From the NCBI GenBank assembly GCA_027310625.1, contig DAIDAM010000002.1, forward strand, positions 65,123 to 129,122: a stretch of DNA of 64,000 nucleotides, read 5' to 3'. Source of the DNA: a bacterium (GTDB lineage: Bacteria > Patescibacteriota > Minisyncoccia > UBA6257 > 2-01-FULL-56-20). How positions within the stretch are numbered: position 1 is the first letter of the stretch; each line of letters opens with the position of its first letter. The position numbers and the translations under genes are program-made. Shown here one piece after another: positions 25,673 through 31,262 of the stretch. A model generated the notes under the pieces. The model did no database searches and was not told where the DNA came from. It was given only the letters and a program-made list of their open reading frames with translations.

Positions 25673-25827
25673 AAATGAGCATGCATTAAGGGCTAATGGT
25701 GGATGCCTAGACATCAAAAGGCGACGAAGGACGCGGCGTAGCTGCGATAAGCTTCGGTGAGGTGCGTAGCAACCGATGACCCGGAGATTTCCGAATGGAG
25801 CAATCCAACACAGTAAACCTGTGTTGT

Positions 25828-25969
25828 CGTGCCTCACTATCGTTCGGCACTATTGCTATCGCGCGAATGGGCGAATTATTACGAACATACGAATTATTAA
25901 ACTGATTCGTAAGTTCGTATCCTATTCGTAAATTCGTGCGATAGAAGTGGCGAGCGGCAGCGAGGCACG
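25828..25969. repeat. 23S palindromic insertion, family A copy 1 (CGCGCGAATnnGCGAAT...TTACGAAC.TACGAAT...TTCGTAAATTCGTGCGATAGAAGTGGCGAGCGGCAGCGAGGCAC)
   Basis: Flanked by complementary GTGCCTCAC...GCGAGGCAC; interrupts conserved 23S sequence before GAAACATCTCAGTA. Confidence 0.6.
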
Positions 25970-26049
25970 ACGCAAACCCGCTGAAGTGAAACATCTCAGT
26001 AAGCGGAGAAAAAGAGAACAATCAAGTCCTCTGTTTCACATATCCCATC

Positions 26050-26235
26050 AATTTGACAGAGCGAATCTTGAGACAGATTCGCGGCGCGAGGAGCGCAGTG
26101 TGCCGGTAGGCACATAAGCGACGAGCAACAAAGAAGCTGGCCAAGATTCGCCTGCCCGAAAGGGAAACGAAAAATTGGCCGATTTCTGTGTTGCTCCTCG
26201 TCGACGTAGCTTTGGCTACAATCTCCTCGTTGCGC
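26050..26235. repeat. 23S insertion, family C copy 1 (GATTCGCGGCGCGAGGAGCGCAGTGT...ATAAGCGACGAGCAACAAA...GTTGCTCCTC)
   Basis: Second copy at 30650-30900. Confidence 0.5.
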
Positions 26236-26341
26236 CTTGAAGTCGTCTCATTCTTTCGCTTTCAAATTTGACGGTATATGTGAAATAGAGGACGTTATTC
26301 CCTCAGTAGCGGCGAGCGAAAAGGGAAGAGCCGAAACTAAT

Positions 26342-26475
26342 CGTGCCTCACCGCCGTTCAGCACTCCATCGCGCGAATAGCCGAATTTTTACGAACGTAC
26401 GAATGAAACCAATTCGTATGTTCGCGCCGATTCGTAAATTCGTGCGATAGAAGTGGCGAGCGGCAGCGAGGCACG
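26342..26475. repeat. 23S family A copy 2
   Basis: cgtgcctcaccgccg...ttcgtaaattcgtgcgatagaagtggcgagcggcagcgaggcacg. Confidence 0.6.
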
Positions 26476-26507
26476 ATTGGGGTAACAAGAGAGAAACGCT
26501 CTTAAAG

Positions 26508-26580
26508 TGTCACGTGTCATGGGTCATGTGTCAGGATTTTTCTTGATACTTGATACTTGACACCTGATACTTTGAGGTGG
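26508..26580. repeat. Tandem heptamer tract in the 23S (GTGTCAC/GTGTCAT/GGGTCAT/GTGTCAG then CTTGATA x3)
   Basis: Direct reading. Confidence 0.5.
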
Positions 26581-26904
26581 AGAAGTTACAAAATTTTTGC
26601 CTAGCTGAATCTGCTGGAAAGCAGAACCAAAGACGGTGAAAGTCCGGTAGGCGAAAGGCAAAAATCTTCTTAGTTTCCCGGCGCACATAATTTATGTGCG
26701 CAGCCGAGCACAAAACTTGTTTTGTGCTCTGGTTTATCTTCAGTACTTCGAGGCAAAAAAACTTCGAAGGAATTAGCGAGTACTATCTCGCAAGGCTAAA
26801 TACTTTTGATGATCGATAGTGAACAAGTACCGTGAGGGAAAGGTGAAAAGCAGGCCGGTGAGGCCGTTGAAATAGAACCTGAAACCATTTGCCTACAAGG
26901 ATTC

Positions 26905-27033
26905 GGAGCTCTCCGCTATCGCTTTGAGCTCCTCTATCGCGCGAATATGCGAATTCTTACGAATGTACGAATTCGTAAATTCGTATTTTTTTCGTAATTC
27001 GTGCGATGGGGAACTCCGAGCGGTAGCGAGGAG
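26905..27033. repeat. 23S family A copy 3
   Basis: ctatcgcgcgaatatgcgaattcttacgaatgtacgaattcgtaaattcg...ttcgtgcgatgggg. Confidence 0.55.
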
Positions 27034-27140
27034 TGACGAAGTGCCTATTGAAGAATGAGCCAACGACTTATGGTGCATTGCTTGTGTAAGTACCTTTAAG
27101 GGATGTACGCGCAGGGAGACCGAGTCTTAATAGGGCGTAT

Positions 27141-27266
27141 CGTGTCTCACTATTGTTCGACACGTTATCGCGCGAATAAGCGAATAATTACGAACTTACG
27201 AATTCGTATATTCGCAACCGATTTGTAAATTCGTGCGATAGAAGTGGCGAGCGGCAGCGAGGCACG
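27141..27266. repeat. 23S family A copy 4
   Basis: cgtgtctcactattg...gcgcgaataagcgaataattacgaacttacgaattcg...ttcgtgcgatagaagtggcgagcggcagcgaggcacg. Confidence 0.6.
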
Positions 27267-28660: not shown

Positions 28661-29290
28661 AACTAGGCCGCAGCGAAAGTTTTCCTGGCGACTGTTTACC
28701 AAAAACACAGCTCCCTGCGAACTCGCAAGAGGATGTATAGGGGGTGACGCCTGACCGATGCGAGAAGGTCAAGACTGCCTGTCGCATCTCACTAAGGTGA
28801 GATGCTCTGATATTCATTGAAATTAGTTCGCCGAAGGCGAACGAAAATTAATAGAAATTATTGGTGATAAATTTCGCGAGCGAAGCGAGCAAATTTCTAT
28901 AAATTTCAGCGAAGCGAATATCAAAAGCACCGAACTTTAGTGAGGTGCGGCGGAGTGGTTCAAGCCCTCGTCAATGTCAGCAATAACTATAATTGTTCTA
29001 AGGTAGCGCAGTTCCTTTCCGGGTAAGTTCCGGAGCGCACGAATGGCGTAACGACTGGGAAACTGTCTCGACGGCGAGCTCGGTGAAAATGCGATTCCCG
29101 TGAAGACGCGGGATACCTGCAGCGGGACGGAAAGACCCCGGAAGCTTTACTGCAGCTTGGTATTGGCTTTAAGGTCTTGATGCGTAGCGTAGTGGGGAGG
29201 GTTTGAAGCTCCGATTTCGGTCGGAGTGGACCCGACAATGAAACACCCATCTTTAGGACTTTAAATTCTAACCATACCAGAACCCCTCTT

Positions 29291-29390
29291 TGCGCATAAG
29301 CGCAAAGCGCAGAAGGACGCAGAATGAACGCGGACTAACGCAGAATTTTTTTCAGCGTGGGTCTGCGTAAAGTCAGCGTGAGTCAGCGCT
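29291..29390 (+). repeat. Composite palindromic mini-element (ACGCAGA arm + TCAGCGT arm) in the 23S, copy a
   Basis: gcgcagaaggacgcagaatgaacgcggactaacgcagaa + tttttttcagcgtgggtctgcgtaaagtcagcgtgagtcagcgc, closed by cctctttg ... caaagagg. Confidence 0.6.
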
Positions 29391-29630
29391 TTGTTTACTC
29401 GTGAACAAAGAGGGGAAGCTGGTGAGGGACAGTGCTTGGCGGGCAGTTTCAATGGGGCGTTGTCCTCCTAAAGAGTAACGGAGGAGTCTATTAAGGTCGG
29501 CTTGGCCCGGATGGAAACCGGGCTGGACGCGTAAAGGCAGAAGCCGGCTTAACTGCAAGACCTACAAGTCGCGCAGATGCGAAAGCAGAGCTTAGTGACC
29601 CGACCACTATGTCAGTGCTTCGCACTGACC

Positions 29631-29708
29631 GCAGAATAACGCGGAACGAACGCAGAACTACGCAGAACTTTCAGCGTAAGTCAGCGTCAAGTCCGCGTGA
29701 GTCCGCGG
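29631..29708 (+). repeat. Composite palindromic mini-element in the 23S, copy b
   Basis: cgcagaataacgcggaacgaacgcagaactacgcagaac + tttcagcgtaagtcagcgtcaagtccgcgtgagtccgcgg. The right arm is near-identical to the lepA and cca copies. Confidence 0.65.
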
Positions 29709-29917
29709 CCAATGCGGAGCATTGGCTCTTCATAGAAAGGTGGGAGACACCGGATAAAAGCTACTCCGGGGATAACAGGCTGGTGAGATCCGAGAGTCCC
29801 TATCGACGATCTCGCTCGGCACCTCGATGTCGGCTCATCCTAGCGCGGGGCTGGAGAAGGTCCCAAGCGTTTGGCTGTTCGCCAATTAAAAGGATACGTG
29901 AGCTGGGTTCAGACCGT

Positions 29918-30585
29918 CAAAATAACTGAACCGAGGACATCAAGCACGGCGGCTCGTCGCCGCAAGGCGACCCGAATAAATCGACTCATATCGGTGGAGT
30001 CCTAGCACGGCAACCTGTCATATGCTAGGATAATACCGAGGGAAGTTGCATATGTTGAATCTTTCGTCAACGCAAAAAGCATATTTAGCGGGATTTCTAG
30101 ACGGCGATGGGAGTATCTACGTGCGGCTGAAACCAAATACCGATTACAAGTATGGTTTTCAGGTTGCACCGTACGTTATTCTTTTCCAATCGTCCAAAGA
30201 ACGTAAGAAATTTGAAAAGGTTTGTTCCTTAATTGGTCTCGGATACATTCGAGAAAGAAAGGATAGAATTTTGGAATACACCATCGGCAGGGAAAAAGCA
30301 ATCAAGTTTTTTCTTAAAATGGTGATTCCGTATCTGATTCTAAAAAAGAAGCAAGCAATTCTTACGTTGGAAATCCTGGATATGAAAATGAAAATCAAAA
30401 ACAAGAACGATTTTCAGGCGTTGATGAATAAGATAGATATTTTTCGTAATCTGAATTATTCGAAAAAGCGTAAAAAGCATGTGTTAACCTCGTAGAGACT
30501 ACACGTCGATCCCGAGCACATAAAGCGTTGCGTGCTTCGGTGGTGGTATAGTCCGACACTCTTAGTAATAGGAGATTACAGTATG
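29918..30585 (+). mobile_element. Presumed group I intron in the 23S at the I-CreI-type site (between CGT and CGTGAGACAG), carrying a LAGLIDADG ORF
   Basis: Conserved exon sequence GGGTTCAGACCGT | ... | CGTGAGACAGGTCGGTCCC is reconstituted if 29918-30585 is removed; the insert ends in G and the 5' exon ends in T. Confidence 0.6.
30046..30495 (+). CDS. LAGLIDADG homing endonuclease, single-motif homodimeric type
   Basis: KAYLAGFLDGDGSIYV motif; 149 aa; AT-rich; located inside the rRNA insert. Confidence 0.85.
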   Translation: MHMLNLSSTQKAYLAGFLDGDGSIYVRLKPNTDYKYGFQVAPYVILFQSSKERKKFEKVCSLIGLGYIRERKDRILEYTIGREKAIKFFLKMVIPYLILKKKQAILTLEILDMKMKIKNKNDFQALMNKIDIFRNLNYSKKRKKHVLTS

Positions 30586-30649
30586 CGTGAGACAGGTCGG
30601 TCCCTATCTGTTGCAGGCGTAGAGTTCTCTCTGCACAAATTGCACGACT

Positions 30650-30900
30650 CGCAATCGTAGCTATTTTGTTTCGGATTCGCGGCGCGAGGAGCGCAGTGTA
30701 TCCTCTGTGATACATAAGCGACGAGCAACAAAAACAAAGAAGACGAACAAAATAGCACGACCGGAGGAGCTTCCGAAATCGCACGATTTCGGCGTTGCTC
30801 CTCCTCAACGTGCTTTCCAACAAGCACAATTTCGTCGTCGCGCCTTGAACTCGCGCGATTTCGGAAGCTTTGCGATGTCGCGGAATTTGTGCAGAGAGAA
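30650..30900. repeat. 23S family C copy 2
   Basis: gattcgcggcgcgaggagcgcagtgtatcctctgtgatacataagcgacgagcaacaaaaacaaag...gttgctcctcctcaacgtgctttcc...cgtcgtcgcgccttgaactcgcg. Confidence 0.5.
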
Positions 30901-31076
30901 CCAATACTTGAGGGGAGTTGGAATTAGTACGAGAGGACTTTTCTGAACGGACCTCTGGTGTACCGGCTTTGGTACCAACTGAAGCGCCGGGTAGCTATGT
31001 TCGGAAGGGATAAGCGCTGAAAGCATCTAAGCGCGAAGCCTACCCCAAGATTAGGTATCAGCGTGCGTAGCACAAT

Positions 31077-31185
31077 GTTCGGTGTTCGATCGCTTCGCTT
31101 GTTCGATTTGTTCGAATTGTTTTTACTTCGAACATTCGAACTTCGAACGTTTCGAACGCGAGCATCGCGCTGCGCGCGCAAGGTT
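31077..31185. repeat. TTCGAAC-rich repeat tract inserted near the 23S 3' end
   Basis: gttcgatcgcttcgcttgttcgatttgttcgaattg...cttcgaacattcgaacttcgaacgtttcgaacgcgagcatcgcgctgcgcgcgc between conserved CCCCAAGATTAGGTATC and CCACGTTGATAGG. Confidence 0.5.
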
Positions 31186-31262
31186 TCGTGGGAGACTACC
31201 ACGTTGATAGGTTCTAGATGTAAGGCCCGCAAGGGTTTTAGTCAAGGAATACTAATAACCTG

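Follow-up and report, generated by a model that had tools for sequence, protein, structure and literature searches.

The 64-kb stretch of DNA analysed here (contig DAIDAM010000002.1, positions 65,123 to 129,122 of the forward strand; hereafter the window) carries a 23S rRNA gene of ~5.59 kb, compared with 2.90 kb in E. coli. The gene is almost doubled by one intron and at least 16 hairpin-forming mini-repeats, and the repeats belong to a few families with further copies in spacers, intergenic DNA and protein-coding genes. Colonisation of the gene by repeat families had been proposed in an earlier reading of the window, made without database searches (the sequence-only reading), and is supported by the copy-to-copy comparisons described below. 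The content of the insertion sites differs between the window and its close relatives.

Extent, core and surroundings of the 23S rRNA gene

By blastn and Rfam, the gene was located at ~25684-31276 (+), close to the 25684-31262 (~5.6 kb) originally proposed. The full Rfam model LSU_rRNA_bacteria (RF02541) was matched from 25676 with 1802 bits; the stop of this match at 30030 is an artefact of the large intron. Alignment to E. coli rrlH with blastn gave 16 colinear conserved blocks (Ec12-Ec2900 = 25687-31272, where Ec denotes E. coli numbering), as expected from the earlier description of intact conserved blocks split by inserts of a few repeat families. The motifs of the sarcin-ricin loop, the peptidyl-transferase centre, the A-loop and the P-loop are all present, and the conserved 23S core is intact.

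A 5S rRNA gene follows the 23S. Rfam detected no 16S (SSU rRNA) anywhere in the 64-kb window, and a scan of the whole window matched only LSU, 5S and tRNAs; the sequence-only reading had likewise described a 23S without a preceding 16S, as in many genomes of the Candidate Phyla Radiation (CPR, Patescibacteria). Assignment of the host to this group is based on three observations: the best LepA homologs are from Ca. Liptonbacteria and Paceibacterota (73-75% identity), family A repeats also occur in Liptonbacteria and Patescibacteria metagenome-assembled genomes, and the 23S is unlinked from the 16S.

The gene is bracketed by a predicted leader-trailer stem, in which 25519-25568 pairs with 31377-31425 over ~49 contiguous bp (-113 kcal/mol, cofold). 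Heptamer-repeat arms at ~25470-25518 and 31426-31455 lengthen this stem outward, and the modelled structure looks like a canonical RNase III processing stem. These outer arms are of the AAATCTn / nAGATTT type, which also forms a hairpin at 44400-44465, upstream of an S18-like gene; the arm style is that of the dominant rRNA insert family in one of the relatives (locus L038, see below).

The segment 29864-30980, which covers the intron and family C copy 2 with the junctions on either side of each, was reproduced at 99.7-100% in three independent Logan assemblies. In addition, the related loci L038 and L039, taken from different assemblies, are 99.98% identical over 5.8 kb. The inserts are not an assembly artefact, because the three Logan assemblies agree and the separately assembled relatives share the architecture.

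Inserts in the 23S rRNA gene

Fourteen gaps between conserved blocks are longer than in E. coli: 13 contain at least 100 extra nucleotides (nt), intron included, and one contains 39 nt. When the published criterion for CPR insertions was applied (at least 100 bp relative to the E. coli K-12 rRNA), 13 gaps qualified, with a total of ~2.7 kb. Without the intron, ~2.0 kb of extra sequence is distributed over 13 places as long hairpins (Table 1). All the inserts were placed on the reference 23S structure by E. coli numbering, the Rfam consensus structure and comparison with the relatives; outside the Rfam structure lines, helix names (H10, H13, etc.) are from E. coli coordinates and the standard numbering.

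All the inserts fold into long and almost unbroken hairpins (z = -5.5 to -14.4; none of 200 shuffles was as stable). The hairpin arms consist of ~4 tandem units of 7-10 nt, as detected with Tandem Repeats Finder (TRF), and the opposite arm is complementary. Some enlarged regions are composite: the H15-H21 region (+306 nt relative to E. coli) contains a family A copy, a heptamer hairpin and three small palindromes, and the H41/H45 region (+132 nt) contains a 32-nt hairpin and a family B copy. The heptamer hairpin at 26497-26585 is 94% identical to its L038 ortholog, and a second copy is found in H63 of L038. Extra stem-loops of ~100-200 nt at helix tips, classically H25 and H45, are the structural hallmark of intervening sequences (IVSs); here, the H25 loop holds a family A copy and the H45 loop a family B copy.

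Table 1. Inserts, repeat copies and associated features in the window (Ec, E. coli numbering; + nt, extra length relative to E. coli; z, folding z score).
Feature	Position	Strand	Remarks
5' strand of leader-trailer processing stem (putative)	25519..25568	+	partner 31377-31425
Family B copy 1, hairpin in 5' leader outside mature 23S	25573..25672	+	86% identical to H45 copy; z = -8.7
Family A copy 1 (A-I), replaces H10 (Ec150-176), +118 nt	25826..25972	+	z = -11.5; H10 of L038 is 25 nt
Family C copy 1, 270-nt branched hairpin in loop of small hairpin Ec222-233 (H13), +270 nt	26027..26296	+	
Family A copy 2 (A-I), H15 position (Ec ~271)	26341..26479	+	z = -10.8
Heptamer-arm hairpin (GTGTCAn)x4 ... 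(CTTGATA)x4, many G-U pairs, H16-H18 5' region	26497..26585	+	TRF; z = -8.5
Three small palindromic hairpins; enlarged H21 region, 82 nt vs 23 in Rfam consensus	26681..26769	+	
Family A copy 3, loop of H25 (classical IVS site), +117 nt	26908..27036	+	Rfam structure line; z = -11.1
Family A copy 4 (A-I), new helix between intact H31 and H27 3' strand (Ec652/653), +129 nt	27140..27267	+	z = -7.6
Family A copy 5, new helix just 3' of intact H40 (Ec987/988), +124 nt	27603..27722	+	z = -6.5
32-nt CGCTTCGC/GCGAAGC hairpin, H41/H42 region (Ec ~1116)	27849..27880	+	Rfam alignment: 32-nt insertion
Family B copy 2, loop of H45 (classical IVS site)	27930..28053	+	Rfam structure line; z = -14.4
H63 rebuilt as TTCGGAC / ATCTGAA heptamer hairpin, +39 nt	28586..28668	+	TRF; z = -9.5
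H68 hairpin extension, ~155 nt beyond E. coli tip (Ec1855-1888)	28773..28961	+	sequence unique in window
Family M copy (core 29308-29388) in unique outer stem, replaces H79 loop, +132 nt	29281..29418	+	z = -7.6; H79 of L038 is 21 nt
Family M copy (core 29630-29707) in unique outer stem, branch off H88 5' strand, +118 nt	29609..29726	+	z = -7.3; H88 of L038 is 26 nt
Intron, 667 nt, after U2593 (E. coli numbering)	29919..30585	+	one-base register ambiguity: alternative 29918-30584, C at intron start
LAGLIDADG_1 homing endonuclease open reading frame (ORF) inside intron, 147 aa from ATG	30052..30495	+	Pfam PF00961, E = 7e-12
Family C copy 2, loop of H94 (Ec2628-2636), +280 nt	30622..30903	+	site empty (TTGATACT) in both relatives; three Logan assemblies
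H98 replaced by TTCGAAC-type unit hairpin, +100 nt	31061..31180	+	z = -7.4; L037 has family A here
Family A copy 6, 23S-5S spacer directly after 23S 3' end	31275..31380	+	z = -5.5
5S rRNA	31582..31699	+	Rfam RF00001, downstream of 23S
Partial family A copy in intergenic spacer, ends ~15 nt before ATG at 44747	44679..44731	.	nhmmer E = 5e-8; sequence read directly
Family M in frame in lepA	4174..4253	+	
Family M in frame in pheT	15193-15271		
Family M in frame in cca/pcnB-like gene (CCA-adding/poly(A)-polymerase type)	17546-17611		
Family M in frame in dnaG	50529-50608		

Most of the inventory in the sequence-only reading was recovered: the motifs it quoted for families A, B and C, at the positions given, the count of at least 12 insertions, the two family C copies (H13 and H94), the two rRNA copies of the mini-element that also occurs in coding genes (family M; H79 and H88), the tandem-heptamer and TTCGAAC tracts (by TRF), the single intron and a partial family A copy near 44.7 kb outside the rRNA. 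Two of its counts were amended. Of the six family A copies assigned to the gene, five are inside it (H10, H15 position, H25, 3' of H31 and 3' of H40) and the sixth is in the 23S-5S spacer; one family does occupy several positions as stated, but copies A4 and A5 form new junction helices beside the intact H31 and H40 and do not lengthen the tip of an existing helix. Both family B copies exist, but only the H45 copy is in the gene and the other is in the 5' leader.

Intron at position 2593

The intron carries the LAGLIDADG_1 ORF, for which 1433 homologs were retrieved. In the 29918-30584 register, U is the last base of the 5' exon and G that of the intron; a 5' exon ending at U2593, a terminal G and a LAGLIDADG ORF are the site and ORF features of group I homing introns. 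No Rfam Intron_gpI match was obtained in the intron region at E<=1, where the 444-nt ORF may mask the ribozyme core. Position 2593 is a frequent site of LAGLIDADG_1 introns in CPR 23S genes, and a group I match was obtained for just 45% of CPR 23S insertions in the published survey (PMC11270868).

Repeat families and their dispersal

Judged by the identities between copies, families A, B, C and M are true dispersed repeats. With up to 3 mismatches allowed, the 18-mer TTCGTAAATTCGTGCGAT of family A was matched 8 times where 0.09 matches were expected, and identity among the family A copies of the window is 75-83%, in alignments of 76-142 nt. Identity is 86% for the pair of family B copies, 71% (184 nt aligned) for the pair of family C copies and 78% for the pair of family M copies in the rRNA. 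The copies labelled A-I, at three unrelated sites, share 79-83% identity over ~140 nt, non-repetitive outer stems included, and also match the L037 copies at H10 and H98.

The outer stems divide the copies further. A1, A2 and A4, together with both L037 family A copies, have the common outer stem TCGTGCCTCAC...GCGAGGCACGA; A3, A5, A6 and a copy from a groundwater genome (Hainich, see below) have CGCTTCGCT/AGCGAGCG-type stems, which are used by family B too. The M cores in H79 and H88 and both C copies each lie within a unique outer stem of their own. Conserved interiors within differing outer stems suggest that cores insert into the loops of extensions that are already there, or persist nowhere else.

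The family A core (ATCGCrCGAA ... TTCGTGCGAT) is present in other Patescibacteria. Genome and metagenome contigs were scanned with the 18-mer, which gave 30 loci, most of them chance matches; real family A copies were recognised only in JACPLI01 (3 contigs), JBBUEA01/Hainich H14 and Ga0114944. Three gaps between consecutive genes in one 8-kb locus of Ca. Liptonbacteria JACPLI01 are each filled exactly by a copy, and the core is found on two further contigs of the same genome. In JBBUEA01/Hainich H14, a metagenome-assembled groundwater genome, the core is in the 23S 5' leader, and in the JGI contig Ga0114944 it is just upstream of a start codon. The partial copy of the window is itself intergenic, between the S18-like gene (identified by sequence reading) and the next ORF.

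The Liptonbacteria cores (L004 2037-2111, 3683-3760 and 4699-4790) and those of L014, L015 and L028 end a few to ~15 nt before the next ATG, and the Liptonbacteria/JGI cores begin a few nt past the preceding stop codon. This spacer-filling position suggests that the hairpin serves processing or regulation between cistrons in these genomes. A role of family A as a promoter upstream of start codons was considered and dropped, as no consistent -35/-10 spacing was seen by eye.

Two further repeats were recorded in the window. Decamer family D5, made of (A)AATCAGCAT units, is found at 15767-15828 (inside the pheT reading frame) and 43812-43873. Two terminator-like, 34-nt GC-rich palindromes (CGCAAAACGTCCGCCCAAGGCGGACGTTTTG; 23143-23176 and 23700-23733) are 97% identical and 557 nt apart.

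Family M in protein-coding genes

The four coding copies of family M (lepA, pheT, the cca/pcnB-like gene and dnaG) are in one orientation and one frame, and the ORFs remain open. The encoded peptides are hydrophilic and related (...SAxSxRxSA), ending in (R/H)(Q/K/E)SA. In the nearest LepA homologs, ~16 residues are absent exactly at the family M position.

Other peculiarities of the protein-coding genes were noted. LepA residues 68-87 (~3492-3551; PDRGTTRKDTRNDAGSNLLE region) are a second extra stretch of ~16 aa, absent from all seven aligned close homologs, and may be another in-frame mini-element. Many LepA proteins of Liptonbacteria/Paceibacterota (P0122, P0123, P0128, P0132, P0138-P0140 and others) are 750-820 aa long with PF13366 (PDDEXK_3, 'GxxExxY') inside EF4, which looks like a mobile insertion, either intein-like or a mis-called intron ORF. 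The rpoB and rpoC genes are fused in one ORF of 2273 aa (36548-43369, +), with all the Rpb2 and Rpb1 domains in one frame; the fusion is kept in both syntenic relatives (2244 and 2266 aa; L037 from 13495, L038 from 17515), and several of its domains exceed the Pfam profile length, which suggests further in-frame inserts. In the tRNA cluster at 56860-57463 (-), repeat family D11 has four T-arm-like copies (56860, 56966, 57040 and 57393). ARAGORN called only Ile and Val tRNAs in this cluster and Rfam added 57394-57463; the segment 56959-57019 was called by neither and may be an interrupted or atypical tRNA.

Turnover between relatives

Syntenic relatives were reached via homologs of the intron endonuclease. 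Loci L037 and L038/L039 have the gene order 23S-5S-ftsW-yceG-rpoBC; L040 and L041 end inside the 23S and were left out as comparators for this reason. The 23S of L037 is at 1336-8325 (~7.0 kb), with introns at Ec2500, 2593 and 2657.

Most insertion sites are common to the window, L037 and L038, with different content. L037 has family A at H10 and also at H98, where the window has a different hairpin. Its family M copies are in the 5' leader (89% identical to the H79 copy of the window), H68 and H88, and others are within the introns themselves (e.g. 6059-6137). L038 has no insert at H10, H79 or H88 and carries four copies of its own AAATTCn-heptamer family, 79-93% identical, at the leader, H25, Ec652 and H45. 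The site of family A copy 4 (Ec652/653) holds other sequence in both relatives.

Three sites (Ec232, Ec987 and Ec2628) are filled in the window only, by families C, A and C respectively, and are clean empty sites in L037 and L038. The first (H13) is empty in E. coli too, and at the second (Ec987/988) the flanks are CA...CA. Sporadic presence among close relatives, by which IVSs are recognised, was thus seen at H10, H79, H88, Ec232, Ec987 and Ec2628. The comparison shows shared sites that hold different families, families that recur at other sites and three sites filled only in the window, which implies that the elements turn over by gain, loss and swaps between families at the same sites. The more distant CPR 23S of L042 contains introns and none of the hairpin families; because it lacks the common hairpin families, the colonisation is taken to be specific to this clade.

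RNA-level constraint

In 15 of the 17 window hairpins, the more stable fold is that of the sense strand, which has 99 G-U pairs against 53 in the antisense strand. The A-I copies, five in all from two genomes, hardly vary in the G-rich 3' arm, and the 5' arm varies between C and U opposite G. In the A-I outer stem, five of six one-sided changes are C/U changes opposite an invariant G; pairing is seen in 93.5% of cells, a share that falls to 27-45% once the partner is slid, and 6 cells have changed on both sides. These substitution patterns indicate that pairing is maintained at the RNA level.

Proposed history and fate of the inserts

The following scheme is proposed. The single 23S gene of a Paceibacteria/Liptonbacteria-like CPR member, unlinked from the 16S, has kept its catalytic core intact and has gained a homing-endonuclease intron at 2593 and ~2 kb of non-coding, self-complementary mini-elements of 80-290 nt. 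These elements belong to a few dispersed families (A, B, C, M and heptamer types), and the transcript of each folds autonomously into a long helix. The same families also occupy the 23S leader and trailer and intergenic spacers, with family M in housekeeping reading frames. Over the timescale that separates related species, elements are gained, lost and exchanged between sites; they may spread by transposition in trans or by recombination between hairpins. In this scheme they persist only at places that tolerate a self-contained helix or a short hydrophilic loop of peptide. In the 23S these places are the loops of peripheral variable helices (H10, H13, H15, H25, H45, H63, H68, H79, H94 and H98), the H88 branch and the junctions at H31 and H40. 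Newer cores are often nested in older, site-specific outer stems. Most of the helices would be cut out by RNase III without religation, as for classical IVSs, which would leave the 23S in many pieces.

It is somewhat probable, in our assessment, that most inserts are excised by RNase III in this way. Excision is favoured because a canonical leader-trailer stem of ~49 bp brackets the gene, because the same families occupy the leader and trailer, which are necessarily removed, and because H25 and H45 are known RNase III IVS sites (PMC8708148, PMC11270868). The RNase III gene next to the rRNA in the more distant relative (L042; rnc, 2735-3430) was also counted for excision. In the introduction of PMC11270868, CPR rRNA insertions are described as removed from transcripts, a statement made of intron- and ORF-type insertions and not directly of short non-coding hairpins.

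Several observations weigh against this scheme. No RNase III (rnc) signature was found in the six-frame translation of the 64-kb window or in the fetched loci. Small internal loops break the stems at intervals of 6-16 bp and can block RNase III, and mitochondrial hairpin elements in rRNA and protein genes are reported not to be removed from transcripts (PMC2800124). With regard to mobility, the interior of each family is best conserved and the ends and outer stems vary, the opposite of a typical MITE (miniature inverted-repeat transposable element); conserved terminal inverted repeats with a target-site duplication, which define MITEs, are not seen here. The three filled/empty sites have no consistent target-site duplication, only the CA...CA at A5, and no transposase was found among the 18 window ORFs scanned. 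Finally, the CGAA/TTCG blocks of the family A core are invariant, the spacers between them vary and there is little true covariation. For this reason, the structure of the core is supported mainly by wobble-compatible, one-sided changes, and the invariant blocks may instead reflect sequence-specific recognition.

The internal loops and the mitochondrial precedent, including yeast GC clusters in rRNA (PMC2800124), are among the arguments for retention of the hairpins as bacterial expansion segments, in which case the mature 23S would be ~4.9 kb and the elements the raw material of rRNA expansion. Selection of the pairing and the G-U pattern on the sense RNA agrees with retention, as do the 94% conservation of the heptamer hairpin between the window and L038 and the finding that unprocessed Salmonella IVSs are compatible with ribosome function (PMC8708148). 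We regard this outcome as possible and the less likely of the two. The description of CPR insertions as removed from transcripts (PMC11270868), with its bearing on intron- and ORF-type insertions, speaks against retention. So do the presence of identical families in spacers that are removed, the leader-trailer stem, which in the model implies active RNase III, and several inserts that look like good RNase III substrates when folded (e.g. the runs of 16+16+16 bp in family B). On structural grounds, the insert sites H25, H45, H63, H79 and H98 match the expansion-segment regions of eukaryotes and archaea, but extensions of 120-290 nt at H68, H88 and H94, which are near the subunit interface and E site, may clash there.

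More doubtful still is the combined claim that genome-wide hairpin mini-elements are the source of rRNA expansion here and are kept in the mature ribosome. If it were true, an ultra-small CPR bacterium would have built eukaryote-like expansion segments (H25, H45, H63, H79 and H98) from mobile repeats, and would let the origin of expansion segments, and of the equivalent peptide loops in proteins, be watched as it happens. In a variant of this idea, preferential insertion into hairpin loops, by some DNA- or RNA-level mechanism, would explain the nested core-in-stem layout.

The missing target-site duplications and transposase would also be expected if the inserts were not mobile and had grown in place by replication slippage and quasi-palindrome correction, with their similarity kept by gene conversion (concerted evolution). 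Gene conversion among expansion regions has been proposed for eukaryotic expansion segments. Arms made of tandem 7-10-nt units fit such growth, as do the related motifs used by the families (TTCGTA, TTCGGA and TTCGAA) and site-specific outer stems around interiors common to the copies. Growth in place is nonetheless an unlikely account of the whole. The A-I copies keep 79-83% identity over ~140 nt at three unrelated sites and match copies in another genome (H10, H98). The same cores are also seen between genes in other genomes and within the reading frames of four protein genes that are not linked to one another, and members of existing families fill three sites here whose counterparts in the relatives are empty. 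Growth is probably helped by slippage, which cannot explain dispersal.

An assembly chimera or a decaying rRNA pseudogene is highly improbable: repeats within a gene are a classic cause of misassembly and the Logan contigs break near 29864 and 30975, but three Logan assemblies span the intron and family C copy 2 with their junctions on both sides, the separately assembled L038 and L039 agree and the syntenic relatives have a like architecture, the core scores 1802 bits with all its functional motifs, and every insert is a clean hairpin at a tolerated site.

Relation to known systems

CPR rRNA insertions were reported by Brown et al. 2015, as cited in PMC11270868. In the later survey (Tsurumaki et al. 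2024, PMC11270868), 82% of CPR 23S genes had insertions, with maxima of 16 per gene and of 5.75 kb in summed length; short insertions other than introns were noted at the H25/H45 IVS sites, and 469 ORF-less, non-intron 23S insertions were left 'uncharacterized'. The window resembles these genes in its host group, the many insertions per 23S, the LAGLIDADG_1 intron at 2593 and the inserts in H25 and H45. Because up to 16 insertions per CPR rRNA gene are already published, the size of the gene, which is within the published CPR range, is not novel in itself. The difference is that the short inserts are here dispersed hairpin families common to helices, leader/trailer, intergenic DNA and coding genes, with turnover among relatives. 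The main text of PMC11270868 contains no word starting with repeat, palindrom or hairpin, and the full-text literature searched gave no account of such hairpin repeat elements in Patescibacteria. The repeat-family nature of short CPR rRNA inserts thus appears not to have been published before.

Classical 23S IVSs (Salmonella, Yersinia, Campylobacter, Leptospira, Coxiella and alpha-proteobacteria) are also stems of 100-200 nt at helix tips (H25, H45), sporadic in occurrence and compatible with ribosome function (PMC8708148). They number 1-3 per gene and are usually unique, whereas the gene described here has at least 16 hairpins from repeat families and their excision is only predicted. The sites used here extend beyond the classical ones to H13, H68, H79, H88, H94 and the junctions.

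In behaviour, the window elements resemble the Rickettsia palindromic elements (RPEs) that Ogata et al. reportedly described in 2000 as ~100-150-nt elements of a reduced genome, inserted in a constant frame into conserved proteins, where they encode a hydrophilic peptide, and said to occur in RNA genes and intergenic DNA too. The window likewise has multiple dispersed similar copies and, for family M, constant-frame insertion into conserved genes; the likeness is an analogy of behaviour. RPEs are not known to colonise many rRNA helices. Arms made of tandem units and the coexistence of several families are distinctive here.

Mobile hairpins of mitochondria (repetitive hairpin elements (RHEs) of sponges, Allomyces double-hairpin elements and yeast GC clusters) occur between genes, in rRNA variable regions and occasionally in protein genes, and are tolerated where length variation is allowed (PMC2800124). 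They differ in being organellar, reportedly retained in transcripts and present at a much lower density per rRNA gene. Eukaryotic and Asgard expansion segments occupy the same variable-region positions and are cryptically simple, repeat-rich helices; Hancock and Dover are said to have found that different expansion segments of one rRNA have motifs in common. These segments are retained and, in contrast to the window elements, are not known to be copies of elements that are spread through coding and intergenic sequence. Correia elements serve as substrates of RNase III. Together with the other Correia/NEMIS, ERIC and REP-type repeats, they are small hairpins co-transcribed between genes, comparable with the family A spacers of Liptonbacteria; unlike the present elements, they have defined terminal repeats and target duplications and are not inside rRNA.

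Significance

Where the intervening sequences and expansion segments of rRNA come from has long been asked. In one small genome, hairpin families are present in rRNA helices, processed spacers, intergenic DNA and protein reading frames, relatives capture their gains, losses and swaps at shared sites, and RNA pairing is kept. The idea that rRNA extensions are domesticated or tolerated mobile hairpins is now directly testable. About half of the CPR 23S insertions are 'uncharacterized', and the hairpin families suggest what many of them may be. Repeats inside a marker gene will also disturb the rRNA-based detection, binning and assembly of these organisms.

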